A DNA stretch of 38,079 nucleotides from a bacterium (GCA_965233585.1 CBDDTI010000030.1:1-38079), one strand, 5' to 3'. Positions 1,001 through 37,542 are shown, counted from the stretch's first letter. The notes: generated by a model not told the origin, from the letters alone. Made by a program: numbers and translations.

Positions 1001-1541
1001 GGGTAATGTCCCTACATCACTCTCATTCGAGCTTGTTACGCTCTCAAAACACCTTAAAACGTTCTCAAAACACCTTAAAACAGGCTGAAACCGTCTTTCA
1101 ACCATCCGTTTACCGATAAAAACCATCTTGATGCGCTCTCAAAACACCTTCCTGGCATCTACATTGAGCCTGTTTCAACCTGAAATCGGCTTGTAATCGT
1201 CTGCAACCGGCTTGTTTTCGTCTGCAATCGGCTTGCAACAACCTCAATCGAGCCTGCAATCGGCTTGTTTTCGTCTGCAATCGGCTTGCAACAACCTCAA
1301 TCGAGCCTGTAATCGGCTTGTTTTCGTCTGCAATCGGCTTGCAACAGGCTCAATCGAGCCTGTAATCGGCTTGTTTTCGTCTGCAATCGGCTTGCAACAG
1401 GCTCAATCGAGCCTGTAATCGGCTTGTTTTCGTCTGCAATCGGCCTGTTGCAAGCCGATTGCAAGCCGTTTGCAACCTCAATTTTTCCCCACTTTCCACG
1501 TCTTGAATCAGTTCGGGGGCGCGAAGAAAGGTTCTGAGAAC
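1001..1541 (+). repeat. Left terminal inverted repeat of the Polinton
   Basis: GGGTAATGTCCCTACATCAC... to ...GGTTCTGAGAAC is the reverse complement of 23347-23886. Only a few differences seen (TTCGAG vs TTCAAG near 1029; homopolymer difference near 1485). Confidence 0.95.
1185..1478 (+). repeat. 53-bp tandem repeat array inside the TIR (mirrored at ~23410-23702)
   Basis: Unit CGGCTTGTTTTCGTCTGCAAT-CGGCTTGCAACA..CTCAAT-CGAGCCTGYAAT starts at 1208, 1261, 1314, 1367 and 1420. It is built from TGCAATCGGCT-like subunits. Confidence 0.9.
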
Positions 1542-2833: not shown

Positions 2834-3891
2834 ATGAACTTCAACATTATTATCGTCTTTTTCATTGGAGTCTTTTATTTGGCTTCATGCGAGGAAGACA
2901 TTATTTTATTAAAAAATCTTCTCGCTAAAATAGTCGGTTCTTCCAATTCTTCCGAAACAACCATCACGCCTACGATTGACTTTGCATCAACCACTTCTTT
3001 CACTTCAAGCACCACGTCCACTTCAAGCACCACGTCCACTTCAAGTACCACGTCCACTTCAAGCACCACAACTTCCACCAGTACTACCGCTGTCCCGCCT
3101 ACTACCTCCGCTACCACTGTCACGAGCTCTACCCTCTCAACCACGACTTCACCCGTGCCTGTGCTAGAAACAAGCACCGGTTCTGCCACCACTTTCAATC
3201 CGCCGATCTTTTCTGCTTCACCTAATGTAACAACCACAGATAATAGTTTCTCCTTCGCGGGTTTTGACTCCGCAATTTTTGACAGTAAGTATTGATTATT
3301 TTCTTTCAAGTCAACCTTTTATACAAATATCTTATTATTTTCAGATGTCTTCAAAATATTCGTAGGATCGGTGTTCGTCTTCATTTTTGTGACGTTCGCC
3401 ATTATAATGTATCAATTAAGAAGACTAAGCCATAATCACCAACAACCGTCTAATGTCGAAGTATGATTATTGCATTTTATAAAATATTTTGTCTACTCTA
3501 TATTTTTTTTTAGCCTATTGAAATGATTTCAATACAAGCTGCTGCAGATTCATCGACAAACGGTGAGGCTGTAGAAGAATCAAACGTCGAAATTTTGCCG
3601 GTTGAGTCAACCGCATCGGCGTTGCCGACCGACGCAACTACTTTTTCGCCAATTCCGAAAAAGTAGATCAAGCGACCAACACGGAGTATACGGTAGGAAA
3701 TTTATTATTATCTTTTAAATCGCTTATTAAATATAATTTATTTTTAGGTTTATCATAGACGACCGTATTTTTCAAGCATGATTCCTCCGTTATTTAACAT
3801 GCCTCGGACGGAACCTGCGGCGGCTTCTTCAATAAACAATGACCCTTCTCCTCCTCTTTGCGCCAAGCAAAATCTGTCTACTCCCGTATAA
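2834..3891 (+). CDS. Spliced type I membrane protein with Ser/Thr-rich mucin-like ectodomain
   Basis: Signal peptide MNFNIIIVFFIGVFYLASC and STTSTS repeats. GT-AG introns 3285-3344 and 3461-3513 join in frame to the TM segment IFVGSVFVFIFVTFAIIMY-QLRR. As written it stops at 3666; one extra T in the run near 3642-3646 extends it through intron 3693-3747 to TAA at 3891. Confidence 0.75.
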
Positions 3892-7651: not shown

Positions 7652-7701
7652 TTTAAAGGACTTATTTTGTTGTATATAAAAAATTCAAGTAAGCTTTGGA
7701 A

Positions 7702-10700
7702 ATGGATTTTATAGAAATTCCGCGAAATTTAAAAAGATCTAACTGCTTGGAATGGAATACTCGATATGATAAATTCAACTTTCTTTATCTGTACATTAGA
7801 CATCTTTTTCCAGAAACTGCTTCCATTACAGATTTTCGTCAAATACCAGTAAAATATCTTAAAAAATTTAACATAAAAGGTTTTACGTTTCCTCTTCAAT
7901 TTTGTGATATAAAAAAATTTTTGTATAGAAATCGTCATTTACCAATTTCAATTTCCGTACTTTATGAAAGTGAAGGTCACGTTTCAAAGTTAGGGTTTAT
8001 TACTAACAAAAACAACGATAGGAGAGAAAATACTCTACATTTGTTAATGATAAAACACGATCCTAAAATCTCTTCCGATAAAATTTCTAGTAATTCCCGT
8101 CCCAAAAAATCGAGTTTTCCTTCCAAGTTTCCTAAAAAAATTAAAGATTTAAATCAACAGCATCATTTCTTTAAAATTACAAAACTCCAAGGTTTTTTGA
8201 ATAATCGGGCCGGACTGTTGTCGATTAACAAAGCGGGTCAACAGAAGTACATCCACTGTGAAAAATGTCTGCTGCGTTTTCGATCAAAATCCAAGAAAGA
8301 AAAGCATGAGCGGATTTGCTACGATAAGCAACGCACCATTTATCCCGGCAAAAATGCTGCTATAAGTTTTTCTAACCACAAACATAAGTTTAAAGCGCCT
8401 GTTGTGGGATTTTGTGATTTTGAAAGTGTACTTCAAAGAAACAAGGAACGATCTAAATGTCAACTTTGTTCTAAATTGGAATGCTTATGTGCTTTTCCCA
8501 CAAGTGACGATATAAATGTGCATAGACCGGTAGGCTACAGCCTGATTTTTGTGGACTCTGAAAATGAAGTATTCTTTCAAGAAGAATATTTAGGAGAGGA
8601 TGCAGCTAAACGTTTTTTGGATCGGATACCTCTCTACGAAAAAGTTGTTGAAGAAAGAAAACAAAAATTTAGAGATGTTCTCAAAACTCAAGCTACCCAG
8701 GAGGAATGGCAAATGTTTCGAAAAGCAACCGTTTGTCATATATGCGGTCTTCGATTTGCTACCCATCCTAAAAAGTATAGAAAGGTTTTGGATCACGATC
8801 ATGTCACAGGAAAAATAATGGGTGCGGCTCATTCGCTGTGCAATTTGACAAGATCCGGACCCTATCATACGCCAATTTTTTTTCACAATGCTCAAGGGTA
8901 AAATTTTTTATTTATTTTATTTTTTGCAATTAATTTTACAAATTAAACGTTTCAGATATGATTTGCATCTGATCATAGAAGAGTTAAACATTCGCCGATT
9001 TAAAAGAATGCCGGAAGTCTTGGCTAGAAACAGCGAGAAATTCCGCACTCTTACATTAGGCAGATTTAAAATTCAGGATTCATTAGAGCACATATCTGCC
9101 AGCTTAGACGCTCTTGTCCAAGATTTAAATCAAACTTCAAACTTTTCTTTCCCTATTTTACAACAAATGGAAAGATTCAAAAAAATTCCTATCCGTCAAA
9201 AATCAAAAGCTTTTAAACTTTTAAAAAGAAAAGGCATTTTTTGTTACGAGCATTTTCAATCATTACAAGAAATGAAAAAGAGTCGAAATCTCCCAACCAA
9301 AGATGCTTTTTATTCTGAATTAAATGAAGAACACATCTCAGAAACGGATTATTCTCATGCGCAAGAAGTCTTCAAACTGTTCAAGTGCAAGAATGTGGCG
9401 GATTACATGATGCTTTATTGTTCTTTGGATGTTATCCTGCTATGTGAAGCGTTTCTTCAATACAGAAAAATGGTTATGGAACATTTTCAATTGGATCCAA
9501 TCTATTACTTAGGTAAATTTCTTTTCTGTTGCTTGACATATAAAGTTTAAATATGAAATTTATTTCGTTTAATTTAGGAATTCCTGGACTAAGTTTTGAT
9601 GTTATGCTTATGTTCTATCAAAATTCTGAACGAGCTACAACAACAAAAGATAACCTCGCGGGTGAATCTTCCAAACCTCCAGGATCTCTGGATATCTATT
9701 CCGATCCTGAAATGGAGCACTTTTTCACAAAGGGTATCAGAGGCGGACAAAGCTTTATCTCTCAGCGTTATGCAAAAGGAAACAGCAATCCGAGAAAAAG
9801 CGGCGATCATTTACTTTACATTGACGGTAATTTTATACTGCATCGTTTGATTAATCTATTTATTTTAAATCAGTGACTTTTTAGCAAACAACTTGTACGG
9901 GAGCATGGAAACTTTAAAATTGCCAGTTTCTGATTTCGAGTGGGTTGCAAAAAAAGATCTTGAAAAATGGACTGCCAAAGATATTATCAAGATTCCTTCT
10001 CAAGACGAGACCGGGTACGCATTCGAAGTTGATTTGCATTATCCTCCTCATCTTCACCCGGTAAATCTGATCTTTTTAACACGTTTTGCATTTTGATAAA
10101 CGGTAAAATATTTACAGAAACATGATCAATTTCCGCTGGCTCCGTATACAGACACGGTTTCTTACAAACATCTGTCTCCTTATAATCGTCGTTTACTAAA
10201 ACATCTTAACCCTCGAGATTATAAGAACAAAAGATACCGAAGCAAGAAACTGTTGAGCACTTTTTATGATCGAAAAAAGTACGTGGTGCATCTGGAAAAT
10301 CTACAATATTATTTGAAAAAAGGCATGAAACTGTTGAGGATAAGAAGAGCTGTGAAGTTTCGGCAAAAAGCTTTTTTAAAAGAGTTTATTGAAAAAGTCA
10401 CGATGCTACGATCAAACGCTCGCAACGATTTTGAACTTCGGCTTTTTAAGCTTTTTGCCAACTCTACTTTTGGAAAGTTTATCGGTAAGTAAATATCCGG
10501 ATTTAGAATCTTTTTTGTATTTTTATATTTGCACAAGCGTGTGGTGGTACTGCCAATATTTAGTGCAAAATGTATTGGCAGTACACACCACACGCTCATC
10601 CGCATCTTCAATGTCGTTGTCGGGGGGCGCGTGAATCTCAGCCTCCACGGTGATGACCTCCCCGTCAAATTCCGCCATCCGGTTTTCCGCCGCCCGGATT

Positions 10701-12616
10701 TTGGCCAGACGGACAATTTCCGTTGCCCGACGTCTGGCGGCAAAAGATCTGTCGTCAGCGGGGATTCTGATGGGGATGGGGGCCTCGATGGGGTTGTCAG
10801 CGGGAATCTCAATGGGAAACTCGATAAACGCCTCGGTGGGCGCCTCGGTGGGGACGTTGGAGGAAATTTCGTTGGTGGGGGCCTCGATGAGCATCTCGAT
10901 GGGGGACTCGGTGGGAGCTTCGATGAGCGCCTCGGTGGGGACGGGGACCTCAATTAGCACCTCGGTGGGGATGTTGGAGGAAATTTCGTTGGTGGGGGCC
11001 TCGATGAGCATTTCGATGGGGAATTCGGTGGGAGCTTCGATAAGCGCCTCTGTGGGAACGTTAGAGGAAATTTCGGTGGTGGGGACCTCGATGAGCATTT
11101 CGATGAGGGATTCGGTGGGAGCTTCGATAAGCGCCTCGGTGGGAACGTTAGAGGGAATTTCGGTGGTGGGGACCTCGATGAGCATTTCGGTGGGAGCTTC
11201 GATAAGCGCCTCGGTGGGAACGTTAGAGGGAATTTCGGCGGTGGGGACCTCAATGAGCGTCTCGATGGGGGACTCTGTGGGGACGTTGGTGGGGAGATCG
11301 ACAAGAATGTCGGTGGGGACGTCAAATTCAATAAAATTTTCGTTTTGAAGGCCTCGGACAGCGCGACCGCTGCCGCCTCCGCCACCGCCAGCGCCAGCGC
11401 CGCTGCCCTCTCTGTTGACGGCAAGCACAGCAACGCCAACAGAGAGGGCAACGGCAGCGGCGCTGGCGGTGGCGGAGGCGGCAGCAGGCGGCGAAGCATC
11501 AAAAATGTCGGCCACGGCCGACCGGATCCGCCGGATCAGGCCCGGTCTCCGGTTCTTTTTCTCCTCCTTCTCCTCCTTCAGCAGCCACTGCTCGTCGTCG
11601 TCCTCCTCATCCTTCAACCTCATGTACCCCCTCTTCATCATCATCATCATCATCATCACTGTCCTCTTTCTTTTTTGTTTTGAAAGTTTGTTTTGAAAAT
11701 TGCAACATGGTTTTAGGAAGTTTTTAAAAAATAAATCTCCAAACTCCCACACACTTTATAATGAATTTTTATAAAAATGTTGTATTCTTTATAAAATATT
11801 TATTTAATTTTATATTTTTCAGAAAATGTTCGAAATTACATCGAAGTGGTGCTTTGTGGAGATGAAAAAAGCTTGAGAAAAGCCAGTCTTGGTCAACACA
11901 TCAACAATTTTCAAATTATTAATGAGAATTTGGTGGCTGTCAACAAGAAGCCGGCAATGATAGAGCTTAGAAAGCCTTTAGCCGTCGGATTTTCCATTCT
12001 GGAGTTGTCTAAGTTGTTCATGTACAGATCATACTATGACACCATTCAAAAACATTTCGGCAAAGACAATGTGTCTTTGTGTTTTTCGGACACAGATTCT
12101 TTTCTTTTAAAAGTTACATGTAACAATTTGGAAAGGGAAATGAAGAGATTGAAACACATGTTTGATTTTTCAAAGTACCCTAAACAACATCCACTTTTTG
12201 ACAACAGTAAAGCCAATCAACTTTTTTATTTCAAAGATGAATTAAAAGGTAGAGCGGCTATTACTGATTTTATAGGCTTACGTCCAAAATGTTATTCTAT
12301 GAAAATAGTTGATTTTTTGGACAAAAACAAAATTGATGAGAAAAAAGTATGCAAAGGTTTAAAAAAATCTAGCATAAAAAAGCAATTAACTTATGCAGAT
12401 TACAAAAAGTGCTTAAAACAAACTGTTGTAATTTACAAATCTTTTAAAAATTTAAGATCAAAGAATCACAAAATCCGAACGTGTTTTCAAAGAAAAATTG
12501 CGTTGTCGGCAATGGATTCAAAAAGATATGTTTTAAATTGTGGATGTCACACTTTATCGCTAGGAAATTGCCTTATTGTTAACAACAAAATGTCTAAATG
12601 CCAAATTTGTAAATAA
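7702..12616 (+). CDS. polB: Protein-primed family B DNA polymerase, 6 exons, ~1112 aa
   Basis: Exons 7702-8897, 8956-9512, 9578-9826, 9885-10060, 10118-10484 and 11823-12616. Splicing restores ExoII HNAQGYDLH, motif A YIDANNLYG, HDQFPLAP and motif B KLFANSTFGKFIENVR. ExoI CDFES, motif C SDTDS and an EndoVII/HNH-like insert (CHICG..DHDHVTG..AHSLCN) are present. Confidence 0.93.
10523..11656 (-). CDS. Nested antisense ORF in PolB intron 5: ~377 aa with a hydrophobic segment and Pro/Thr/Glu/Ile tetrapeptide repeats
   Basis: One open frame spans the GC-rich intron interior from an (ATG)7 run. Repeat length variants keep the frame. TATAAA lies ~100 nt upstream on the minus strand. Confidence 0.6.
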   Translation of the reverse strand: MMMMMMMKRGYMRLKDEEDDDEQWLLKEEKEEKKNRRPGLIRRIRSAVADIFDASPPAAASATASAAAVALSVGVAVLAVNREGSGAGAGGGGGGSGRAVRGLQNENFIEFDVPTDILVDLPTNVPTESPIETLIEVPTAEIPSNVPTEALIEAPTEMLIEVPTTEIPSNVPTEALIEAPTESLIEMLIEVPTTEISSNVPTEALIEAPTEFPIEMLIEAPTNEISSNIPTEVLIEVPVPTEALIEAPTESPIEMLIEAPTNEISSNVPTEAPTEAFIEFPIEIPADNPIEAPIPIRIPADDRSFAARRRATEIVRLAKIRAAENRMAEFDGEVITVEAEIHAPPDNDIEDADERVVCTANTFCTKYWQYHHTLVQI

Positions 12617-12673
12617 AAATCATTACTTTTATTTAAAAGAAAATTTTGTAGTTTCTTTTTTAAAATTAAAAAA

Positions 12674-13369
12674 ATGAATGGTTTTGATTTGAGGTTTAAT
12701 ATTCCGTCTAACATGTTGGTTGTCGGTCCAACATCAAGCGGAAAAACAACGTGGTTAAAACATTTAGTGCTTCGTCGACACGAGTATTTTGCAACTCCGC
12801 CTGAAACAATGTTGTTGTTTTACAAGGAGCCGCAAAAAGCATATCAGTACATGGAAGATGACATGAACGAGGGCAAAGGTTCTGACACGCAATTTCCGTC
12901 TTTTCGTAAATTCAAAAATATTCCAAATTCAATCGAAGAGTTGAAAGATATTTTAGAATTATATCCGAGAAAAATGCCCAAATTGATTGTTTTTGACGAT
13001 TATTTAGACGATGTTGGGCAAATATTAAAACATTTTTTTACGGTTTTGACTCATCATTACAATTGTTTTACCGTTTTTCTTTGTCAAAATTTATTTGACA
13101 AAAAAGGCGATTTACGGACATTGAGCATAAATACGCAATACATGATCCTTTTTAACAATCCACGGGACAGAAGCGCCATCACACATTTGGCAAAACAAAT
13201 TTTTCCCGGTCGTGTTGGAATTTTAAATAAGGCATATAGAGAAGCAGTTAACGGCCGAAGTCACGGATATCTTCTTCTAGATTTCCATCAACAGCAAGAC
13301 GATAAAGTCAGAATTCGAAGTAACATCTTTTCTTATGAAGGATTAATGAAAGCCTACGTTACTGTTTAA
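12674..13369 (+). CDS. FtsK/HerA-family (A32-like) genome-packaging ATPase
   Basis: Walker A GPTSSGKT, Walker B LIVFDD, and Maverick-type THHYN..FLCQNLF..RTLSINTQY..FNNPRD. Confidence 0.93.
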   Translation: MNGFDLRFNIPSNMLVVGPTSSGKTTWLKHLVLRRHEYFATPPETMLLFYKEPQKAYQYMEDDMNEGKGSDTQFPSFRKFKNIPNSIEELKDILELYPRKMPKLIVFDDYLDDVGQILKHFFTVLTHHYNCFTVFLCQNLFDKKGDLRTLSINTQYMILFNNPRDRSAITHLAKQIFPGRVGILNKAYREAVNGRSHGYLLLDFHQQQDDKVRIRSNIFSYEGLMKAYVTV

Positions 13370-13416
13370 AAAATTTCATATCTATTTAAGAAAAATTAAA
13401 AACAATTACTGTTAAA

Positions 13417-14658: not shown

Positions 14659-15141
14659 TCATCGTTTATTTTCAAGTTTTTTTATAAAATGAGTTACAAT
14701 TTCATCATTTTTTATTTTGGGTTTTTTTACAAATATTTTAACAAATTGTTGAGGAGACATTAAATTGTTGCCCACAGATAAACAAAAAGCGGTCACGTAC
14801 CAGCCGCAAAACAATGAATGAAAATCCTGAATGGAGTAAGACAGAATTGTTTTGAATGAGTTTTTTTCTATCCAAGGTCGTAAGAACTTCATTAAAGATC
14901 GATTCCATATCGGCGGTAAAAAACCGAATGAATCAAAATAATAGAGTTGATTTTTTCCGTTAATATACATCGCTATGAAATGTGATCCTTTTTGATTTTT
15001 TTTGGATAAGTTAGTGATTAAGCAACAAGGCAACTTAAGCGAATCAGACGGCAAATTATCGCTTGAAAAAACCCCGATGAAATATTTACATCTTGGTTGA
15101 ATATAATTGGATAAAAAGATATTTGATAATCCGTTTTCCAT
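14659..15141 (-). CDS. Adenain-like cysteine protease (capsid maturation)
   Basis: Catalytic motifs GSHF, YFDSFG and IQ....LFCG; N-terminal FIGVFSSDNLP. Confidence 0.92.
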   Translation of the reverse strand: MENGLSNIFLSNYIQPRCKYFIGVFSSDNLPSDSLKLPCCLITNLSKKNQKGSHFIAMYINGKNQLYYFDSFGFLPPIWNRSLMKFLRPWIEKNSFKTILSYSIQDFHSLFCGWYVTAFCLSVGNNLMSPQQFVKIFVKKPKIKNDEIVTHFIKKLENKR

Positions 15142-15144
15142 GAT

Positions 15145-16488
15145 TTAATTTGTTCCTTTTATAACTTGTTGGAATTGATCTATTTTGATGCCGGAGTTGA
15201 AAACAGAAAAAGCCAGGACGTATATAGGATGAGGAGTTATTACGGAAAAAGCCAGTTCTAAATCTAAATTTCCGTAATTTTCTGGATGCACGTGGAACGA
15301 ATTACATTGATCCGGTGTTAAATCGGCCGCTAGAAAAAATCTTCCTTTTAAATATTGTTCATACGTTAAACCGATGGATTGATTGCCGTGCGAAATGCCA
15401 ATACTGTCGTATAAATGCCGATACAAGTCAATGGCATCCCCCTCGTTTATATTAGGTTGAAATGGTCTGGGAAATACGCATTGACCGTTCTTTTTTAAAT
15501 TAAAAGTAGACAGATTAAAATGTTGAAAGTTGAAAGGGTTTTTGTCCGGGGCGTGTGACATGGCTTGATTGTGAACCATCACAAAAAACACTTGTTTCGG
15601 TAAAGTACCATTAGCGATATTGGCGATGTTGAAGGACGACACACCTTGAGGAATAACATAATGTCTTAAACGTGTGGCGCTAAAAGGTAGGTAGCACGGT
15701 TCTTTTAAAAGTTTGTTTTTAAAACTTTCTCTCAGCAATAATGTGGGCAACACTTTTCTCATATGTAGTTTAACATCTTTTAAAACAATTTTAAAAGGTT
15801 TTTCTGCCGCAGCATCTTGAAGCAAACCAAACTTTTCGGCGGATCTAACCAGCTTGATTTTGATATCCACATTTGGAGGTAAAAATCTGTCGGTGTCAAA
15901 CAGATCAACGGCTAAGCGCGTATTAAAATACACTTTTTTACCGTCCATAATTAACTGCTTTCTTTTATTCAAAGAAGGTGTGGCGGCTGTAACATTTATG
16001 GTATCAACTTCGTCAGCATTTTCAGGATAATACCCTTCAGCAGCCAGATAAGTTTTTTTCACCTCTGAATTGTAACTTAAGAATGATTGTATAAACATTC
16101 TCCAAGGATAAGTGACCGCTGAACTTAAATCAGCTACTTGGACCCCGTTTAAATATACTTCTACTTGGCTGAATAGACAAGCGGCAAAATGATTAGCCAG
16201 TGTGGCTTTAGTATCATTTTTTACCTGTTCACCATCGTCATTTGTCACTACAAAATAGCCGCTAAGTCTGGTTTGATTCAGTATAAAAGAGCATTCGTTA
16301 TCGCGAGGAACAAGAAATTCGACCGGTCCGGTGTTGGTGATAGAAGCCACGCTATTGTAAATAACGTGAGCTCCATCTAATAAACCCGTTTCTACTTCTA
16401 ACGGTGAGTGAAGCGCTAAACCACTTTCGGTACCGTCGTTTTGTTCAACGGCCAATCCGGCAATTCCACTTTTTTCAGGTACGCCCAT
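15145..16488 (-). CDS. Major capsid protein (double jelly-roll, Polinton PY/hexon-like), ~447 aa
   Basis: Maverick MCP-type motifs GPVEFLV, LFSQVEVYLNG, LPKQVFFVMV, NPFNFQHFNL, FFLAADLTPD and GNLDLELAF. First plausible ATG is at 16488. Confidence 0.92.
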   Translation of the reverse strand: MGVPEKSGIAGLAVEQNDGTESGLALHSPLEVETGLLDGAHVIYNSVASITNTGPVEFLVPRDNECSFILNQTRLSGYFVVTNDDGEQVKNDTKATLANHFAACLFSQVEVYLNGVQVADLSSAVTYPWRMFIQSFLSYNSEVKKTYLAAEGYYPENADEVDTINVTAATPSLNKRKQLIMDGKKVYFNTRLAVDLFDTDRFLPPNVDIKIKLVRSAEKFGLLQDAAAEKPFKIVLKDVKLHMRKVLPTLLLRESFKNKLLKEPCYLPFSATRLRHYVIPQGVSSFNIANIANGTLPKQVFFVMVHNQAMSHAPDKNPFNFQHFNLSTFNLKKNGQCVFPRPFQPNINEGDAIDLYRHLYDSIGISHGNQSIGLTYEQYLKGRFFLAADLTPDQCNSFHVHPENYGNLDLELAFSVITPHPIYVLAFSVFNSGIKIDQFQQVIKGTN

Positions 16489-16494
16489 AACAAA

Positions 16495-17037
16495 ATGGAA
16501 GTGTTGGTCAGCAATGTAAAAATTAGTTGTAAAGTTCATCTTATCAACAGCGACGAAATCTCTTTTAATACTGATAATACAATAAAACGTTATAATAATT
16601 TTGTTGTAATAAGAAAAAAATATTCCTTTATTATATTTACCAAAACAAAGCAAAATCGTCATTTTCACGTAAACATTACAAAAATCCCCTCTACAGAACA
16701 CATTGCGAAAGCATTAGACGAACTAAAATTTATTATAAGTAACGAATTTGTTGTTGAAATATTTAAAGTAGAAAACATGACGTGTTTGTATCAATCAAAA
16801 GAAGAGATTAAATTATTAAAATTATACAACCATTTAAAATCGAATAAAAATTTTGAAATTATTCTTAAGAGATATGATCCAGAAAAATTCCCAGGCGTAT
16901 TTTTAAAAATAAAAAAATGTTCAGCTTTAATATTTTCGTCAGGAAAAATAGTTATAATTGGAGCCTCCAGCGAAGAAGATGCTAAACAAGGAATAAGAAT
17001 TATTATTAAATTATTAAAAAAATATAAAATCGAATGA
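16495..17037 (+). CDS. TBP: Virus-encoded TATA-binding protein homologue (180 aa core)
   Basis: Two TBP half-repeats: VSNVKIS..NNFVVIR..FIIF and VENMTCL..YDPEKFPGVFLKI..ALIFSSGKIVIIGA, matching the TBP consensus YEPELFPGL / LIFxSGKxVxTGA. Confidence 0.85.
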   Translation: MEVLVSNVKISCKVHLINSDEISFNTDNTIKRYNNFVVIRKKYSFIIFTKTKQNRHFHVNITKIPSTEHIAKALDELKFIISNEFVVEIFKVENMTCLYQSKEEIKLLKLYNHLKSNKNFEIILKRYDPEKFPGVFLKIKKCSALIFSSGKIVIIGASSEEDAKQGIRIIIKLLKKYKIE

Positions 17038-17093: not shown

Positions 17094-17852
17094 ATGCACG
17101 AGAAAGTAGATTATACTAAAATATGCAATCATCAATATCCAGTAGAAGACACCAGGCAAGGAGACGTGGTGTGTACCGAGTGTGGATTAGTTATTGATAA
17201 AATATATTGTTATAATTTAACAAAATCAAATTTGGAAACAGAATGGGACAAAATAAAAACATTTGATAAAGAAATTAAACCAAAAAACCAGCATTTAGAG
17301 AAAGAAAAAAATATTTTAAAAATTTTATGTAATAAATTACATTTAAATAATGATGTTACAAATGTTATTTTAAATCTATGGTCAGATATAGCAGCGTGGC
17401 ATTATCAAAAAGGTGGAAAAATTAAAATGGATGCTAAAGGATTGGTGGTAATGACGTTGTATCAGGGGTTAATAAAAGAAAAAATTCCCCGCCCGATAAG
17501 TCATTTGTGTCAAGAAGTCGGCATTAATCCAAAGATAGTGTGGCGTTGGATGAAATTATACAGACGGGACTTGACTGACATGAATAAATTAGACAATTAC
17601 ATAAAGGCAAAAGATATGAAAGAATATTTTTTACAGCCGCTGCAGTTAAATTATCAAGAAATGACGTCCGTTGAACAAATATTAAAAAAAAATGAAAATA
17701 GTTCTTTTGCTCCAAGAACTTTATTAGCTGCATGCGCTTATGCCTTTTTAAAAGAATCCAAATTGAGGTATTTAAGCGTCAAAAATATGGCTCACATTTT
17801 AGGCGTCAGTGTTATGTCGTTGTACAGATGTCGTAAAAGTCTAAATCAATAA
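17094..17852 (+). CDS. TFIIB: Virus-encoded TFIIB-like general transcription factor (252 aa)
   Basis: Zinc ribbon CNH...VEDTRQGDVVCTECGLVI and two cyclin-fold repeats (LCNKLHL..LYQGLIKEKIPRPISHLC; RTLLAACAY..MAHILGVS). Confidence 0.87.
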   Translation: MHEKVDYTKICNHQYPVEDTRQGDVVCTECGLVIDKIYCYNLTKSNLETEWDKIKTFDKEIKPKNQHLEKEKNILKILCNKLHLNNDVTNVILNLWSDIAAWHYQKGGKIKMDAKGLVVMTLYQGLIKEKIPRPISHLCQEVGINPKIVWRWMKLYRRDLTDMNKLDNYIKAKDMKEYFLQPLQLNYQEMTSVEQILKKNENSSFAPRTLLAACAYAFLKESKLRYLSVKNMAHILGVSVMSLYRCRKSLNQ

Positions 17853-18263: not shown

Positions 18264-19352
18264 ATGTCGATAACAACGAAAGAGACTTTTTTAAAAGAAT
18301 ACGCGAAACCGGGTTCACCAATAGCTTTTGCGTCTCCCGCGCTAATTTATCATTATTATGGGAAAAAAATCCCTCTGACGTCAATCGAGGAGTGGCTAAA
18401 AGGAACAGACTCTTACACATTACACAAACAGGCTAAATTTCCCAGACCGAGAAATCCAACATTTGCTTATCGGAAACGGTATCAGTTTCAAATTGACCTT
18501 ATAGATTTAGGAAATTTGGCTGAACAAAATGATTCTAATAGATACCTTTTGACAGCCATCGATATTTTTACACGATTCGCCTTTGTAGAACCACTTATTA
18601 ATAAAACGGCAAAAACATTTATGGAAGGGTTTGAATCTATTATGAAAAGAGCAAAACAATTTCCGCGTAGAATTTTAGCCGATAAAGGAGCGGAAATTAA
18701 GAATAAATTATTTCAAGCCTACTGCAAAAACAATAACATTCTTTTGTTACACAGCAATAATTTTGTGCACGCCCCCTTTGTGGAAAGATTTAACCGAACT
18801 TTAAAAAACCTGTTGTTCAAATACATGACTCACGAAAATACTGACAGGTACATTGACGCGTTACCATTTCTTGTCCATACCTACAACAATCGTAAACATC
18901 GCATGATTGGAATGACACCCGCTGAAGCAGAACTCCCTGGAAAAACTTATCAAATTAGAAGAAAACAAGAATTGGTTTATTCAAAGATTAAAAGAATGAA
19001 ACCAAAATACAAAATCGGCCAAACCGTGCGTATTAGCATTATGAAGGGAAAATTTGACAGAGGATTTACACCGCAATTCAAAGAAGAAATTTTTAAAATA
19101 AAATCAATTTCTACACGTTTGCCAAAACCCACTTATGAGTTGGAGACTTTAGAACAGGATGAAACTTTGGAAGGAAATTTTTATGAGAGTGAACTTACAC
19201 CCGTAGATGAGCCAGAAGTATTTGCCATCGAAAAAATTCTTCGGACAAAAAAAGATAAAAAAACCGGAGAAAAAATGGCTTTAATAAAATGGAAAGGGTA
19301 TAAAAACCCTAGTTGGACATACGAAAAAGACATAGTTGATATGCCACAATAA
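18264..19352 (+). CDS. int: Retroviral-type (rve/c-integrase) DDE integrase with C-terminal chromodomain
   Basis: QIDL..LTAIDIFTRF, ADKGAE, VERFNRTLK; chromodomain-like IEKIL..IKWKGY..SW. Confidence 0.94.
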   Translation: MSITTKETFLKEYAKPGSPIAFASPALIYHYYGKKIPLTSIEEWLKGTDSYTLHKQAKFPRPRNPTFAYRKRYQFQIDLIDLGNLAEQNDSNRYLLTAIDIFTRFAFVEPLINKTAKTFMEGFESIMKRAKQFPRRILADKGAEIKNKLFQAYCKNNNILLLHSNNFVHAPFVERFNRTLKNLLFKYMTHENTDRYIDALPFLVHTYNNRKHRMIGMTPAEAELPGKTYQIRRKQELVYSKIKRMKPKYKIGQTVRISIMKGKFDRGFTPQFKEEIFKIKSISTRLPKPTYELETLEQDETLEGNFYESELTPVDEPEVFAIEKILRTKKDKKTGEKMALIKWKGYKNPSWTYEKDIVDMPQ

Positions 19353-19358
19353 CACGGA

Positions 19359-21098
19359 ATGGATTATAATATTTATTGCGTGTCAAACGCTAGTTCCGAT
19401 ACGGATGACAAAAATACTTTGAATTCTTTTACCAATTTATTTCCACAAAGTTTAGACTTGAAAAATAGAGAATGGGAAATTGGGGTAGTGTCTATTGGAT
19501 TACATTACAATTACAACCAATTGACTTTGTCAAAAGGCCAACCTTGTTTCATCACGCTAAAAAACGAATTAACATCTATAAATTCTTCGGAAGAAAACAT
19601 AAAGTCCGAAATTTTAGACCAGACAAAATCCATTTGGGTTTTGCCTAATTTAGATGAAGATGTATTGACAGTGCATAGACTGATGCAAAACTTGATGCAA
19701 TATATTTACAAGGAAGGAATGAGATTGTATCATTTTGAACCCAAATCGGGGGGTAAAGATGAAAAAGCTTACGTAATAGATGAAAACCCGAAAAAAGAAA
19801 TGGAAAATGAAAATTACAATTATAATAGATATTTTTTGATACATAAACATTTTATAAAAATTTTAAATTTAAAATACTACCAAAACGGTTTTGTATCCTC
19901 CCAAGCAAAATCAATCAAATTTTTTGACAACGAATATGTATATTTTTCTGTAAAGAAAAATTTTGCGCTTCTAACTACAGCAATTAAAGTGTATTCCGTT
20001 TTGAAACCCGGTCTGGTTCAAATAAAATCAAATATTATTTCTGACGTTCCCAGCGGAAATAGTTACTCCACAATTATGTTTACAACGACTTTACCAAATC
20101 AAATGGAAGGTCATTATTTTTACCATAATGTAAAAAATATCAGATATTATCAAGTGCGACAATCTAATATTGAAACGATAAACACTCAATTTACAGATTC
20201 TTTTGGGAATCTTTTAAGTTTAAACGAAGGTCAGCCGTCTATAGTGCATTTTCATTTAAAAGAAAAAGACAAAAATATGGATTACGAATTAACGCACGTA
20301 CGAATCGATTCACAAGTAGATACCAAATTGAACTACGAAAATACGAATAGTAGTTTTTGGGCACACTTAAAACATCCGATAAGTTTAAATCAAAACGCAA
20401 AAATAGCCTTGATGGATATATCTTTTCCCAACACCATATGTAGCATTCCAAAATCAATTGGAAGGAATCCGTTTATCTTAAATGTGTTGATAAACCAGAA
20501 CGAAACAAAAAAACACGTCGTGGAAATACCAGAACTTTATTTCTGCAACTCCGATGATTTAACAACATCAATGAACCGCCTGTTATCCGAAGAACTAAAG
20601 AAAATTTTACATTTTGAAAATTTTAATGGGTTCTTTAGGATTGTGGCTAAAACAAATAAACCTTTTTCAATAAGCATTCCCAAAAACTTTTGCCCGTTTT
20701 TAGGAATGTACGATTACTCGGAGAGAGAACTTGCAAGAATTGAGGAACGAGGTGATTACGTCACGCTTGCAGTGGCTAAGGAAAGATTTTTTGAAGCACC
20801 AAAACCAATGGACGTTTACAAATTATATCCCGGAGTTATGATATGTTATGCAAATTTTGTTCAACATTCCATTATTGGAGACAAATTTTACCCAATATTT
20901 AGAGTTATACCAACAATCGGTCAATCCACACAAAATGACTACTGTTCTATCCATTTCGAACATTTAGAATTCATAAGATGCAATGTTGATTATTTAGACG
21001 ACATAAAGATCGAACTCAGGAGATTAGACGGAAATTTGATTGAATTTAACGACGATCGAAGAGTAATTTTAAACATTGTAATTAAAAATCCAATTTAA
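19359..21098 (+). CDS. Minor capsid (penton-like) protein made of two tandem penton domains (579 aa)
   Basis: Domain 1: SNAS..NTLNSFTNLFPQSLDL..EWEIGVVSI..VHFHLK. Domain 2 (from ATG 20277): NTNSSFWAHLKHPISL..IALMDISFP..SIIGDKFYPIFRVI..IELRRLDGNLIEF. Confidence 0.82.
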   Translation: MDYNIYCVSNASSDTDDKNTLNSFTNLFPQSLDLKNREWEIGVVSIGLHYNYNQLTLSKGQPCFITLKNELTSINSSEENIKSEILDQTKSIWVLPNLDEDVLTVHRLMQNLMQYIYKEGMRLYHFEPKSGGKDEKAYVIDENPKKEMENENYNYNRYFLIHKHFIKILNLKYYQNGFVSSQAKSIKFFDNEYVYFSVKKNFALLTTAIKVYSVLKPGLVQIKSNIISDVPSGNSYSTIMFTTTLPNQMEGHYFYHNVKNIRYYQVRQSNIETINTQFTDSFGNLLSLNEGQPSIVHFHLKEKDKNMDYELTHVRIDSQVDTKLNYENTNSSFWAHLKHPISLNQNAKIALMDISFPNTICSIPKSIGRNPFILNVLINQNETKKHVVEIPELYFCNSDDLTTSMNRLLSEELKKILHFENFNGFFRIVAKTNKPFSISIPKNFCPFLGMYDYSERELARIEERGDYVTLAVAKERFFEAPKPMDVYKLYPGVMICYANFVQHSIIGDKFYPIFRVIPTIGQSTQNDYCSIHFEHLEFIRCNVDYLDDIKIELRRLDGNLIEFNDDRRVILNIVIKNPI

Positions 21099-23346: not shown

Positions 23347-23886
23347 GTTCTCAGAACCTTTCTTCGCGCCCCCGAACTGATTCAAGACGTGGAAAGTGGA
23401 AAAAATTGAGGTTGCAAACGGCTTGCAATCGGCTTGCAACAGGCCGATTGCAGACGAAAACAAGCCGATTACAGGCTCGATTGAGCCTGTTGCAAGCCGA
23501 TTGCAGACGAAAACAAGCCGATTACAGGCTCGATTGAGCCTGTTGCAAGCCGATTGCAGACGAAAACAAGCCGATTACAGGCTCGATTGAGGTTGTTGCA
23601 AGCCGATTGCAGACGAAAACAAGCCGATTGCAGGCTCGATTGAGGTTGTTGCAAGCCGATTGCAGACGAAAACAAGCCGGTTGCAGACGATTACAAGCCG
23701 ATTTCAGGTTGAAACAGGCTCAATGTAGATGCCAGGAAGGTGTTTTGAGAGCGCATCAAGATGGTTTTTATCGGTAAACGGATGGTTGAAAGACGGTTTC
23801 AGCCTGTTTTAAGGTGTTTTGAGAACGTTTTAAGGTGTTTTGAGAGCGTAACAAGCTTGAATGAGAGTGATGTAGGGACATTACCC
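23347..23886 (-). repeat. Right terminal inverted repeat of the Polinton
   Basis: Reverse complement of 1001-1541, ending ...GTAGGGACATTACCC. Confidence 0.95.
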
Positions 23887-30084: not shown

Positions 30085-32741
30085 TTAGATTCTTCTGGCC
30101 ATCTTTATGGTGAACCAATAAGCAATTTCAACAGCTGAGATGAAGCTGAACCCCATGCAAAGACCAAGAAGGCCACCAAGTTGGGAGATGAAGTCGATGA
30201 TTGTCATGCGAGGTTGTCGAACATACTCAAAGGCTGTTGATGACTCAAAGAAAAAGGTCACCAGGGCAATGTCCTTTTCGTATGCATTGTGAGTCGGTTC
30301 TCTGGAATTGTCCTTCTTGAAGATGATGTCCTCTTGTTGGGTTTCTCCTTGGGTGCGTCGAATATTGGACTTGATGTCAGTAAAGGATAGGGGTAGGTCA
30401 GCCCCGTACTCTTCCTTAACACTCGCTCCCCAAACTGGAGGATTTATGATCCTCTTGCTCTCAAAGTTGCACAGTTCACTGATTCCAAAGTTCTTCCTGT
30501 CACACTTCCTGAAAGGGGCAGCTGACACAGAAGCTTCAATGAGAGTAGATGAGCAGTCTGGGAGGCAGTGAAGGCATTCAGAGTCAGGTACATCTCTGAT
30601 GTGGTCTGCAAATTCAAAGGCAACCCATGGATCACACATCTGGAGAGTGTTGTTCCTGATGGGAAAGTACCATGGGATGCAAGACCCATTCATCTTCTGA
30701 AGGCTGTAGTGAAGACTGCATTCCAACATGCAGTTAGACTGTGAGTACTTTTGGTGAAGCTCCAGCTCTTTCTCATGCTCAAAGTAACACTGCCTCTTTA
30801 CTGGGTCAATATTAGCAAGGTCCTCAGCAGATGTCACTTTAGTAGCTTTCAGTGACACCATATTTTCATGCCCTGGTCTAAGAAGCAAAGATTTCTTAAA
30901 GGTCAATGGGTATTGATTGCTGGACTCAACAATGGCAGAGAACCCTTGGACATCCTCCCTAACTGAGCTGCTAGCTACCTTTTCTGAATGAGCATCCAGG
31001 ATCACAGTTAACCCCTTGGACATTCCAGCCTGAGGCACAGGTCTCTTGCCATTCTCAAATGGATCCTCCCAGTTTGGTTTGAAATCATCAGGAAGGTCAG
31101 ATAGTTGGAAGCTGTACTTCCTGTCTCTCATTTGCATCTTGTCAATGATTCTGGTGAAGGGTCCCTCCCTGAACATGGTCTCTGCAGCTTCAAGGTTGAA
31201 GGTGCAGCACATTCCCCTGTCTGTAGGAGATGTCTTGAAGATCAAAGCACATGGTAATTCCTTACCCCTCCAGTAGCATGCTTTAAGCATTCCATGTTCC
31301 ATGTCCTTGGTTGATGTGGCTTCCTTCACATCAAAACATGGCTGCTGAGTATACCACAGCAGCTCAAACAGGCTCTCATAGCTCCCAGTCATGTTCATCT
31401 GTCTGAAGTTTTCTGAGATCTTTTGTTTTGCTTGCATGTGAAGTGCTTTGGCCTGCCTCCTCAACAGTTTATCAAAAACATAGGCAAGGGATGTTGGTTG
31501 GCTGTGTCCAGATTGCCTCTTCTCCCTTTTCTTACCTGAACCAACTGATGAGCATGCCCCCAATTTCTTGTGGCATATGTCCATGGTTTGGCCTTCAAAA
31601 TCATCCCCACATTTTGCCATTTCAAATCTAGTGTTTGTCCCATCAGGTTTGAAAGCCCTAAGGCCACAGAATGCAGTTGTATTTGGCAAGATCCCATCAG
31701 ATGAGGGGAGAGGTGGTCACTCACCTTCTCTAGAGTCTCCACAAAATAAAACTGACCTTCTGATTCAAAAGCATTCAACCAAAAACCAATGTCACCACTG
31801 CCACCAGGGTTGTCAAGGATGCCTGCAACAGTGTCAAATGTCCATAAAAAATGCCTCCTGAGAATCACCAATAACTTTACCTGGTTCACTCCCCATAAAG
31901 CTCTCAAAATCCTGAGTATAGTTACCCCCACCTCCAAAATCAATCCTTTTGCCTCCAACCTCAAGACAAGTGTCATGTTCAAAGTCCGTGAAACCTCTGG
32001 CCATGAAGCAGTGGGAGGATCCAGAAACTAGGCTTTTCCATCCAGAACCACAATCATTGTCAACATATCCATCAACATAATCATCACAAGGGTCTTGGCC
32101 TTTATTGACAGCAATCTGAAAAAAAAAATATGAAAGTCCTGTCCCATGAACACTAATTTGAAGATGTGGCTGGTTACCTCAGACTTCAATGTGGAGTCTG
32201 GATTCAATGATGCCATGGACTTGACAATCTTTTGAATAGGATCTTTTGCTCCAGGAAAAAGGTCCAATCTAAGTTGAAGAATGAGGTTGACCTTTTTCTC
32301 TAATGACACTGTGGTAATGTTCACATCTGGGTGAGAGGCTGCAACATAATCCATGAACTGCTTGTTCTCTGCCTTGTCAAGCACTTTCTGAATCCAACCT
32401 TGGCTACAAATAGTGATTGCTGGGTAGGCCAATTGACTGATTGACTTTCCTGTGGAATGGACTGATGTTATCACTGGGAAGGTCTGCCAAGCCACATATG
32501 CTTCAACAATCCAATAGATTGCCAAGGTGATGGTTGATGCAAAGACCAGAGTCCAGAGGAAGCGCTCCCACCAGATAAGCTTGACATCACAGGCATAGCT
32601 GATGCCATGTATGCTGGTGATTTCGGCAAACTCATGAAAGGTGTTGCTGATGGTCTTCTTTACATTCTTGTTGTCTACTTTGTTGGACTTTGGAGGGTAA
32701 TAAATAGCAGGTTTTGACTCTAATTGTTTGCTAGACTGCAT
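30085..32741 (-). CDS. DEG/ENaC (pickpocket-like) sodium channel
   Basis: TSIHGISY gating motif, TM1, YPAITIC, TDRGMCCTFN, Cys-rich thumb, DFISQLGGLLGLCMGFSFIS TM2. Introns 32177-32116 and 31880-31823; one apparent 1-nt frameshift near 31705. Confidence 0.9.
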
Positions 32742-34326: not shown

Positions 34327-35453
34327 TCATTCATTGTACCAGTCCAAGAACAACAGAGAAAATGACATGACCAGGAGGAAGAACAGAATGTATACCCTGA
34401 TGCTGGCGTTCCTTTGGATGGCCCGTCGAAGCTCCTCGTTGCCATCTTTGATGTTTTCAGTAGAAGCCACAGCGTGGGCAGCGATGATGTCAATGTCATC
34501 TTTCTGCTGTAGCACTTTGGATGTGAACACATCCTGGAGCTCGGCTATCTTAACAACCTTGCTCTCAATCTGTCGCACGCTGTCTTTCATCGTTATCAGA
34601 TCCTCGTACAACTTGACGTTCTCCTGCTCGAGCACCTGGACCTCTTCGGTTGAAAAGGCCTCGGGTGACACCTCATTATCATCATCTGACGAGTAGAGGT
34701 AACCCGTGCCAGAGGGAGGGGGAACAGGTGTGCTTCTGTTAAGGCTCTTCTTCTTCCTCCTCCTGTGCCGCGTGCTGGGCGAACCTTCATCATCGCCCTC
34801 GCTGCCAGTCTCTTCTTCCTCCGTGTTGGTCTTGGTCACTGTGGACCTCCTAGCTTTCACCTCCAACCTAGAGAACCTCTGCATCTCCAGCTCCTTTTCA
34901 ACTCGAATCGCCTTCTGCCTCGAGTGAATCTCGCAAACGGATCTTGAAGGAAATAAATTGTTCTTTTAAAAATGATTGCGCTATAATATCAGGAAACTAT
35001 CAAGTACCTTAAATAGTCATCTAAAATGTCCGTCACTGCCTCAAAATGTTTGATTCTCTGGCTCTTCATTCCCTTGATTTTTTCCTTTAAATCCGATTTG
35101 AATTTCGACAAAAGGGCGTTTATGGTTTTGACAAAATTTTGAGCCCCGGCGTCGATCTTGTCCCTGTCGATATCCGTGATGGCGTCGGCTAGACACTCGT
35201 TGTTCATAACATCAAGGTAAGCGTTCCGGTTTTCCCCTAAAAACTCCTTCAGGCGCGTCACATTCTCTACGATGATTCTGCCGCGGCTCTCAAAACTGTC
35301 GTCGTGTTTTCTCTTCTTGGACGTCGGGAGGATCCGATTCTTGTCAGGAACCGGGAAAAGATCCGGATGTTCACCCTCTGACGCCGAACTTTCATCAGCG
35401 TGCCTTTTCTTTGCCGCCTTAACGGCCTCTTTGAAACTAACCGTGCGATTCAT
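34327..35453 (-). CDS. STX18: Syntaxin-18 (ER Qa-SNARE), ~353 aa, two exons
   Basis: Exons 35453-35008 and 34942-34327. DRDKID, QKAIRV..SRLE, SNARE helix VRQIESKVVKIAELQ..ENIKDGNEELRRAI, and C-terminal TM ending LLFLDWY. Confidence 0.92.
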
Positions 35454-35913
35454 CGATTTATTTCGAAGTCTATCTTCGACTTTGCGGAATTTCCTCAAGG
35501 CGATTCCCCTTCCAGAAAAAAACAAAATCTTCGAATTTTAACAAAATCTAGATGTTTGACGTGTCTATCTTCCGTAATAGAACTGGGCAGAAAAAAATGA
35601 GACCATTGCTTTATTCCCAGATCCACGGTCGCAAAAAACACCATTTCACGTTTTAAAATAACCTCAGAGACCCCAAGGTTACCTCATCTTACACCGTCTC
35701 TTCGCTTTTAGAGAAGCGGTCGTATTTTTACAATAAGCATTTTTTAAGTAGTAAAATATTAAGTAGTAAATAAACGGTGCTGCTGTTCGCCGAAAAAATC
35801 GTGGAAAATTAAATCGACATCTTTGGGTGAAAAAAATGAGTGCGTTCATTTTAGTATTTCATTAACTTAACTGCATCTATTTTTGTTAACTCCAAATTTG
35901 GTTCCGGACGAAG

Positions 35914-36600
35914 ATGATGCGGCTAGCGCTAAGGTCTTTGCCCGCGTCGTGGGGATCGAGGGCGTTGTCGACGTCCGGATGCGACATGGTGATGTGGCCG
36001 GCCGCCTTCAAAGATCCCATTTTGCACAAAAAAGACATCAAGGGTGCCAAGGAATCCGGGGAATTCGAGATCAGGGTGATGAACCCGGTGAAAGCGGCTC
36101 CGGACGTCGCCACCTGCTCCCTGTTCAAGAACGAGAGGGCGGAGAAGTTCTATCGGCTGGTTCGGATGTACGCCGACAGGGAGGCGGCCGAGTGGCAGAT
36201 GCAGAGCACGTTCCGGCTCATGAAAAAGGCGCAGTTGGCGAAATGGCGCAAGACTTCCGCTGAGAAGCGCCATCAGGTGATTGTGGACCCCACCAAGCTC
36301 CTCCTGACGGCCCTGGACAACGCCCAGCCGCTCATGTGGCTAGAGAAGGTCAAGGTGGGTGCGGTGGAGTACACGGTACCGGTGCCAATCCTCAAGGAGC
36401 GAGCAGAGTTTGAGGCAATGAGGTGGATCATCAATTGTGCAAGGGACAGGGACAAGTCCAAGTCATTTTTCTTTGAAAAACTGTCCGAGGTCATCCTGGA
36501 GACGGCTGCCTACACGGGCAGGGTCATCCAAATCAAGGACGATCACCACAAGACTTGTGAAATCAACCGGGCCTACGCTCATTACCGGAGATCGAAATAA
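35914..36600 (+). CDS. MRPS7: Mitochondrial ribosomal protein S7 (uS7m)
   Basis: Presequence-like N-terminus, PVKAA, YTVPVPI, AMRWII, HHKTCEINRAYAHYR; divergent from STX18. Confidence 0.9.
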   Translation: MMRLALRSLPASWGSRALSTSGCDMVMWPAAFKDPILHKKDIKGAKESGEFEIRVMNPVKAAPDVATCSLFKNERAEKFYRLVRMYADREAAEWQMQSTFRLMKKAQLAKWRKTSAEKRHQVIVDPTKLLLTALDNAQPLMWLEKVKVGAVEYTVPVPILKERAEFEAMRWIINCARDRDKSKSFFFEKLSEVILETAAYTGRVIQIKDDHHKTCEINRAYAHYRRSK

Positions 36601-37522: not shown

Positions 37523-37542
37523 CTCAAATTCTTATTTCAGAA

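Follow-up and report, generated by a model that had tools for sequence, protein, structure and literature searches.

A probable accessory gene nested antisense in a polymerase intron of a Maverick/Polinton clade

We analysed a 38,079-nt stretch of DNA (GCA_965233585.1, CBDDTI010000030.1:1-38079), referred to here as the window, which is the whole of one contig (C30) in a 12-Mb, 747-contig assembly filed as a prokaryote. It contains a Maverick/Polinton element whose DNA polymerase gene, PolB, is interrupted by an intron of 1338 nt, and the GC-rich interior of this intron holds a long open reading frame (ORF) on the opposite strand. The reading that we favour, at a probability of about 0.72, is that the intron interior is a real, selected, lineage-specific accessory gene of a Maverick clade, lying antisense to PolB. 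This nested gene is predicted to encode, and to be selected for, a modular protein composed of an N-terminal module, a hypervariable repeat core and a conserved C-terminal module.

The architecture of the host gene is well defined. PolB lies on the plus strand, where our script-derived model places exons 1-5 at 7702-8897, 8956-9512, 9578-9826, 9885-10060 and 10118-10484, separated by four short GT..AG introns of 58, 65, 58 and 57 nt. Intron 5 (10485..11822, phase 1, GTAAGT...TTTTTCAG) is some 20 times longer than these and is followed by the last exon at 11823..12616, which contains CFSDTDSF. The intron begins with GT at 10485-10486, ends with AG at 11821-11822 and splits a Glu codon after its first base (G-AA); once it is removed, the exon frames beginning at 10253 and 11846 join without a shift, and the spliced six-exon model is a single open frame of 1111 codons. 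With these borders, a restored frame and colinearity with intronless homologues, intron 5 is, judged by its sequence, a spliceosomal-type intron. No RNA data set was listed among public runs for 9000-13400; contigs from four public runs, of unspecified library kind, were compared with the locus and gave neither an exon-exon joint nor strand information. We call the gene a protein-primed PolB because two exons match the Pfam DNA_pol_B_2 profile colinearly, at 10202-10483 (E 1.9e-5; 24.2 bits on a 94-aa exon, where the cut-off for a whole protein is 25.8) and at 8972-9511 (E 0.063), because the N-terminal exon carries an HNH motif (ORF 7696-8901, residues 334-385; Pfam Endonuclease_7, E 1.1e-5), and because DxNNLYG, KLFANSTFGK and SDTDS can be read in the spliced model. 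Exons 1-5 thus carry the HNH insert, exonuclease motifs, DxNNLYG and KLFANSTFGKFI, and intron 5 follows directly after KLFANSTFGKFI, which we take to be polymerase motif B, with CFSDTDSF presumably motif C.

An earlier note on this locus had described the intron as AT-rich at its edges and sharply GC-rich inside, and composition bears this out: the 5' edge (10485-10535) has 23.5% GC, the interior (10536-11662) 58.8% and the 3' edge (11663-11822) 20.6%, so that edges of 21-24% flank an interior of 59%, with the rest of the element at 34.8%. The minus-strand ORF that the note had described within this interior is also present with all of its named parts. It spans 10523..11656 and encodes 377 aa plus a stop, starting with seven consecutive ATG codons (11656..11636) and ending with a stop codon at 10523-10525. 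The N-terminal module (11491..11656) is short and basic/acidic; it comprises (Met)7, KRGYMRLK, an acidic run and GLIRRIRSAVADIFD, and can be summarised as RGY..., an acidic run, GLIxRIxxAVAxxF. It is followed by an Ala/Val segment and a poly-Gly run, by tandem repeats at 10843..11281, and finally by a C-terminal module formed by the last 85 codons (10526..10780), which ends ...VVC..C...YHHxLV. Tandem Repeats Finder (TRF) reports periods of 12, 24, 75, 87 and 117 nt in the repeats, the 87-nt (29-aa) unit occurring 3.9 times. The core that they encode is rich in Pro, Thr, Glu and Ile, and residues 106-290 include no K or R, 39 D or E, 28 P and 33 S or T, for a net charge of about -39. Upstream of the start, the AT-rich flank (11657..11822, minus strand) would contain the promoter and 5' untranslated region, and four TATAAA(A/G) motifs lie on the minus strand between 11754 and 11814, which by their positions are putative promoter elements. 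By eye, no motif common to the promoters of the nested gene and other element genes is obvious in the 160-nt upstream stretches. The frequency of G or C at third codon positions (GC3) is 0.71 in the nested ORF, compared with 0.28-0.34 in the core Maverick genes and 0.51-0.78 in the three host genes on the contig.

How much weight an open frame of this length can bear depends on the composition in which it lies. The interior is poor in TA dinucleotides, and three of its six frames contain no more than two stops each. After dinucleotide shuffling, the mean length of the longest open frame is 176 codons; at least one of 500 shuffled sequences had an open frame as long as the real one (maximum 380), while in a further 2000 none reached 370 codons and 23 reached 300. 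The length of the ORF is therefore only moderately beyond chance. Openness is weak evidence in a composition that leaves half of the frames nearly open, and the case for coding must accordingly rest on conservation. The same figures are the starting point for the contrary proposal, namely that a GC-rich minisatellite containing palindromes, and without coding function, expanded inside the intron, the ORF being a by-product of its stop-poor repeats of 3n period. The earlier note had pointed to repeat length variants that preserve the frame; the repeat periods are indeed all multiples of three, but because every unit is itself a multiple of three this is not independent evidence of coding, and it also suits a minisatellite.

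The conservation evidence comes from sister elements in this assembly, which contains 12 copies of the entire intron (family A). These always lie between the same PolB exons and have interiors that are 74-96% identical. Mean pairwise identity is 97% in the flanking exons, 92-94% in the AT-rich intron edges, 93% in the C-terminal part of the ORF, 86% in the repeats and 84% in the N-terminal part. We compared substitutions among 11 of these copies, the twelfth being cut by a contig end. Over the last 85 codons, the in-frame nonsynonymous and synonymous rates are dN 0.035 and dS 0.223, a dN/dS of 0.16, as against 1.59-3.84 in four other frames; with the stem-loop at the end of the ORF (hairpin 1, below) left out, the in-frame value is 0.18. 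Variable sites in this module fall 13/9/32 on the three codon positions (p 2e-4), as compared with 10/12/11 in the AT-rich flank and 3/1/15 in the PolB exon. Insertions and deletions in multiples of three make up 11 of 15 in the non-repeat segments of the ORF and only 1 of 14 in the AT-rich flanks (Fisher p 5e-4). These signals lie outside the repeats, which tells against a minisatellite.

The remaining frame, a plus-strand frame that shares its wobble sites with the nested ORF, has a dN/dS of 0.24 in the same region. It belongs to an open stretch of 232 codons (10650-11348) that might instead be coding, as an alternative PolB exon or an intron-retained product. We regard this as very improbable. 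Its ratio is worse than that of the minus frame, and a mirror effect of this kind is also seen in the PolB exon used as a control, where dN/dS is 0.02 in frame and 0.12 in the mirror frame. Furthermore, the conserved modules at 10526-10649 and 11349-11656 fall outside the plus-strand ORF, and the homologues recovered by protein search match the minus-frame product from end to end.

Several observations count against a selected nested gene and have to be set beside this signal. One is the state of the frame in the sister copies: a colinear ORF is kept in only 5 of the 12, six are interrupted by frame-breaking indels (one of these is also cut by a contig end), and one is open from end to end yet contains two compensated out-of-frame stretches. 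Ten core genes have their full length and no stops in almost every one of these copies, and the last exon of PolB is intact in 12 of 12, with a dN/dS of 0.02. That seven copies are not colinear-intact next to intact core genes would fit a minisatellite. Frame-specific purifying selection, moreover, holds only for the C-terminal module; in family A the first 50 codons have no coding periodicity (16/18/19) and a dN/dS of 0.69. A second, Pro/Ser-rich minus frame (SPPxxFPP..., 10309-10953 and 10954-11502) is open over most of the interior and runs open for 182-337 codons in several copies. An out-of-frame ATG lies about 55 nt upstream of the (ATG)7 run. The assignment to the minus strand turns on the difference between 0.16 and 0.24 together with the position of the conserved termini outside the plus-strand ORF, and the hairpin of -131 kcal/mol described below would be unusual within a coding region. 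No confident structure is predicted either: AlphaFold2, given a 7-row alignment, returned a mean predicted local distance difference test score (pLDDT) of 32 and a predicted template modelling score (pTM) of 0.17, with no residue above a pLDDT of 50. A Pfam scan of the nested protein gave no match, and a protein atlas gave no usable match, with a low recognition of 1107.

The C-terminal dN/dS is 0.15 in the interrupted copies and 0.19 in the intact ones, and because it is no higher where the frame is broken, the breaks fit a reading as recent, tolerated, or errors of short-read assembly in repeats. The second minus frame, into which interrupted copies switch, shows no purifying selection (dN/dS 1.6-1.8). 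The sister-copy comparison proposed in the earlier note therefore has a divided outcome: the frame is broken in half of the copies and makes compensated excursions in one more, while the substitution pattern still argues for coding.

Relatives of the nested protein are rare, and their arrangement tells against a minisatellite. Among 5.8 billion protein clusters we found seven family members, all from metagenome contigs or from the same assembly, besides two low-complexity matches; a profile search of 1.84 billion representatives returned nine proteins with E <= 0.001. Two of the relatives, P0006 and P0003 (about 52% identical), have the same order of parts and share 67-73% of amino acids over the last 90 codons, although P0003 starts late and is without the N-terminal module. 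A third, P0013 (153 aa), joins an N-terminus of the family-A type (43% over 46 aa, E 2e-6) to a tail of the type found in a second family of introns, family B (E 1e-19), with a third type of repeat in between. Relatives at 26-52% identity thus keep both termini around three unrelated repeat cores, and we conclude from the comparison of P0003, P0006 and P0013 that the family consists of conserved ends and a replaceable repeat core. When the C-terminal module was aligned against JGI metagenomes (1 locus) and GTDB genomes (2), with its own genome excluded, only chance matches of 12-20 residues were found, without a comparable ORF.

Family B allows a comparison at the same intron. Here, two minus-strand, GC-rich genes occupy the same PolB intron, separated by a spacer of 14-21% GC. 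The first (149-169 aa) is a homologue of the window gene, with an RGxY start, GLIxxIR..A..VADF, (DVIPA)n repeats and a ...CVV..C..C..YHHALV tail; the window protein matches this tail at E 3e-5, and the two genes also resemble each other in their upstream flanks, where a stretch of 60 nt is 79% identical. The second encodes an unrelated repeat protein of 396 aa with GAWSSS and ERPVAPAWPSRTPYKSVPQKS repeats, and is intact in 7 of the 14 family-B-type loci examined; the contigs with this two-gene intron include C523, C288, C579, C705, C411, C96 and C228. Both genes give the coding signature seen in family A, with dN/dS of 0.38 in frame and 1.3-2.5 off frame for the short ORF and of 0.33 in frame and 1.1 off frame for the long one. 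With the selected C-terminal 85 codons, the enrichment of triplet indels outside the repeats, the termini shared around unrelated cores and the repetition of the signature in family B, we consider it unlikely that the interior is only a minisatellite, even allowing for the open frames, the broken copies, the unperiodic N-terminus and the lack of a confident fold.

The nature of the encoded protein is less clear than its modular layout. The acidic repeat core fits an extended, disordered segment. The helices drawn by AlphaFold2 (residues 7-22, 35-48, 51-78 and 298-320) all have pLDDT below 50. Residues 62-80 give the highest 19-residue Kyte-Doolittle mean in the window protein, 2.12, as compared with maxima of 1.39 in family B and 1.12 in B224, and no hydrophobic stretch was seen by eye in the unscored sequence of P0013. 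The membrane anchor envisaged in the earlier note would hence be at best a feature of family A, because family B falls below the threshold and P0013 appears to have none.

A further complication is that two segments of the ORF are also strong inverted repeats. Hairpin 1 (10536..10596) has a stem of about 26 bp, covers the last ~22 codons and abuts the stop; the fold of 10520-10610 has an energy of -44.4 kcal/mol (z -8.9). Hairpin 2 (11364..11490) is formed by 57-nt arms, 88% complementary (11364-11420/11434-11490), that encode the Ala/Val segment and the poly-Gly run respectively, and the fold of 11355-11500 reaches -131 kcal/mol (z -14.8). Hairpin 1 forms in 11 of the 11 copies that reach it (-42.6 to -44.4 kcal/mol) and hairpin 2 in all 12 (-58 to -131 kcal/mol). 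In the window and in C77 an extra mirrored insertion lengthens hairpin 2 and adds residues in frame, a manner of palindrome growth that a minisatellite would also show, while in C670 a change in hairpin 2 is compensated on both arms. At the 3' end of its ORF, family B has a hairpin (-50 to -53 kcal/mol) that shares the outer stem but differs in the inner one; the family also has a GGC/GCC palindrome of its own at the conserved motif. An analogy with integron cassettes, with one hairpin per gene, was considered and rejected, as the long gene of family B is without a strong hairpin at its 3' end.

These features make it conceivable that the working product is RNA, in the form of hairpin small RNAs or of antisense control of PolB splicing or expression and hence of copy number, with the protein secondary. 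Such a role would be compatible with a selected nested gene. In its favour, both hairpins are strong on either strand and fold in every copy that reaches them, and hairpin 1 is 97% identical among copies, a level that matches the PolB exons and exceeds the 93% of the remaining ORF. The compensated change in C670 and the retention in family B of a hairpin in the same place with a different inner stem point the same way. Animal microRNA precursors are of about the size of hairpin 1. Against it, no Rfam family is matched at its gathering score: in a search of Rfam 15, including microRNA precursors, all 19 listed matches are sub-threshold, and the best, MIR7526, scores 68 bits where 110 are needed, as any long hairpin would. 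Palindromes can also maintain themselves as DNA without selection, and purifying selection at the protein level reaches well beyond both hairpins, as the dN/dS obtained without hairpin 1 indicates. We therefore hold it unlikely that RNA is the principal product. The hairpins themselves may be selected RNA elements, serving in 3'-end formation, as small-RNA precursors or in translational control, or they may be self-copying DNA palindromes. Since hairpin 1 covers the extreme C-terminus, some of the apparent protein conservation there may be conservation of a nucleic-acid stem.

It might be objected that the long intron is an artefact in which foreign GC-rich DNA has been joined into a repeat family during assembly; the contig comes from a short-read bin with many near-identical Mavericks, and read depth is lower over the interior than over the exons. 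This is the least probable of the explanations and we give it almost no weight. The 12 copies were assembled separately and have the same layout with differing sequences, a contig from a public run bridges the 5' junction (10355-10561), and runs from a second study cover pieces of the interior. The lower depth fits the exons being common to other families.

How the gene came to lie in this intron can be considered from the distribution of intron forms at the same codon. A search of the assembly with the exon peptides that flank intron 5 listed 51 loci. Maverick PolB loci in the assembly number at least 51, on 44 of the 747 contigs. Five distant PolBs (43-46% identity) have no intron and read through as ...GK TME NVRN..., and 14 loci have a GT..AG intron of 55-74 nt at exactly the same codon and phase. 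One locus has an intron of 941 nt, 11 family-A loci have introns of 1077-1351 nt (the twelfth copy is without the upstream exon) and 13 family-B-type loci have introns of 1583-2322 nt; at the remaining seven, no matching downstream exon was found nearby. In the assembly the nested family was found only in PolB introns, in 12 A loci, about 14 B loci and the contigs C224 and C258, and protein searches of the 12 Mb found it nowhere else. In a tree of the intron-flanking exons (194 columns; 40 rows, comprising all loci with both flanks), the intronless loci lie outside, the short-intron loci form a clade supported at 100/100 and family B one supported at 96/90, and family A is unresolved. On this tree gain and loss of the nested gene are equally parsimonious. 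A short intron may plausibly have gained the gene, and we lean toward capture in view of the short size of the other four PolB introns and the host-like GC3. The earlier note's suggestion that cargo has been placed in an intron of an essential gene is supported by the restriction to PolB introns, by the short-intron sister clade and by a GC3 unlike that of the core genes.

We suggest that a separate promoter of TATA type, within the AT-rich 3' edge of the intron, would drive the nested gene, and that its transcript would terminate close to the conserved stem-loop that abuts the stop codon, some 40 nt short of the 5' splice site of PolB. Expression of PolB would then need only the splicing-out of the whole 1.3-kb unit. 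The intron may be a safe site for cargo, because an insert there would break no element gene and would stay linked to the polymerase; family B keeps two such genes in it. Least certain is the function of the protein, which may be mostly disordered and engaged in interactions with the host or the element, its repeat core being under diversifying pressure. With equal hesitation we suggest that in family A the protein may span the membrane once, in type II orientation, and bear an acidic stalk. In a more elaborate proposal, the PolB intron would be a dedicated, expandable cargo bay for one or two antisense genes with interchangeable repeat cores between conserved ends, whose transcripts carry conserved, near-perfect hairpins (26 bp at the stop, up to ~60 bp inside the ORF), so that protein and hairpin RNA would act as a unit that tunes the polymerase through antisense or small-RNA control of copy number, or that meets host defence. 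We offer this as a speculation that is unlikely to hold as a whole.

The element that carries these genes spans 1001-23886 and is identified from its sequence features as a Maverick/Polinton. It is bounded by terminal inverted repeats (TIRs) of 489 nt each at 1001..1489 and 23398..23886, which are 100% complementary and contain tandem arrays at 1201-1444 (53 bp x4.6, TRF) and 23443-23686; no target-site duplication was seen in the six bases outside the TIRs (ACAGCC / TCATCT). An rve integrase with a chromodomain lies at 18264-19352 (PF00665, 35.4 bits, above the cut-off of 32.6). The ORF at 12674-13369 has only sub-threshold matches, as an A32/FtsK-like ATPase (Pox_A32, E 0.0029; FtsK_SpoIIIE, E 0.0093), and a Pfam scan of 14659-15141, 15145-16701 and 19359-21098 for an adenain-like cysteine protease or jelly-roll capsid proteins found nothing. 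An ORF with one TBP-fold repeat (16441-17037; PF00352, E 2.8e-19) adjoins another with a TFIIB zinc ribbon (17094-17852; E 1.2e-6), a pairing which suggests that the element may bring its own basal transcription factors; no paper joining Polintons with TBP or TFIIB was among the top 10 full-text matches listed. At 2834-3295 there is an ORF with a hydrophobic N-terminus and a Ser/Thr-rich, low-complexity body of 18/36-nt repeats that is relatively GC-rich.

The DNA of the contig is animal, although the assembly is filed as a prokaryote genome. Beyond 24 kb it encodes a DEG/ENaC channel (Pfam ASC, E 1.4e-58), syntaxin-18 and a mitochondrial-type ribosomal protein S7, with host gene segments at 30085-31689, 32028-32741, 34989-35525 and 35914-36600. 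The protein atlas points to Eukaryota in general, with Arthropoda most frequent, the nearest relatives of the channel protein come from metagenomes, and the splice sites give an impression of being nematode-like. The host part also contains a 399-nt tandem repeat at 36718-37533 (2.1 copies, 81% matching).

In animals, introns are known to house entire genes, which mostly run opposite to the surrounding gene and have promoters of their own. The present arrangement is alike in placing a complete gene inside an intron on the opposite strand; it differs in that the surrounding gene serves the replication of a mobile element, so that the two transpose together, and in that this intron varies among sister elements, from a length of 55-74 nt to forms with one nested gene or with two. 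The order of parts in the family-A protein (a basic N-terminus, a hydrophobic segment, a Gly linker, Pro/Thr/Glu-rich repeats and a small C-terminal module) may also be likened to that of type II membrane attachment proteins with an acidic or mucin-like stalk. By contrast, the hydrophobic segment here corresponds to one arm of a palindrome in the DNA, family B does not have it, and no fold is predicted for the protein.

Cargo, or accessory, genes have been reported on nematode Mavericks (bioRxiv 10.1101/2022.07.12.499685). The nested gene is similar in being non-core and lineage-specific, on an element with intact core genes and TIRs, but differs in lying antisense inside a spliceosomal intron of the polymerase and in encoding an orphan family of repeat proteins without a Pfam match. 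Full-text searches of the literature listed no report of a selected gene within a Maverick polymerase intron. Introners have been described inside Maverick-Polinton-like proviruses of dinoflagellates (PMC11957031), and these likewise are extra DNA within Maverick genes that is removed as an intron. Introners, however, are short transposons without coding content whose insertion makes the intron, whereas here a short form of the site exists and the interior carries a gene that appears to be selected. Neither terminal repeats nor a target duplication were seen where the intron begins and ends, the only candidates being a 19-nt AT-rich direct repeat and a 14-nt inverted repeat in the exons, and full-length copies occur only between PolB exons, within the limited coverage of a 12-Mb assembly. 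Polintons of the pPolB2 type with an HNH domain are known from nematodes, oomycetes and molluscs (PMC10748475). The PolB analysed here resembles them in the HNH (Endonuclease_7) motif of its N-terminal exon, a likeness drawn from that motif; in the text of that article the words 'nested', 'cargo' and 'GC-rich' are absent.

Maverick cargo and animal nested genes are thus both known, and a selected gene in the intron of an element's own polymerase would join the two. At a single codon, sister elements present a graded series from no intron, through an intron of 55-74 nt, to one nested gene and then two. The finding also flags an assembly filed as prokaryotic that contains Maverick-rich animal DNA. 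If our interpretation is correct, introns would let virus-like transposons add genes without disturbing a compact genome, and they would here have housed an orphan protein family in which the repeat core is replaced wholesale between conserved ends, as is usual under diversifying pressure. The strong, conserved hairpins within the coding region would, in turn, raise the question of whether they are selected RNA structures or self-propagating DNA palindromes.

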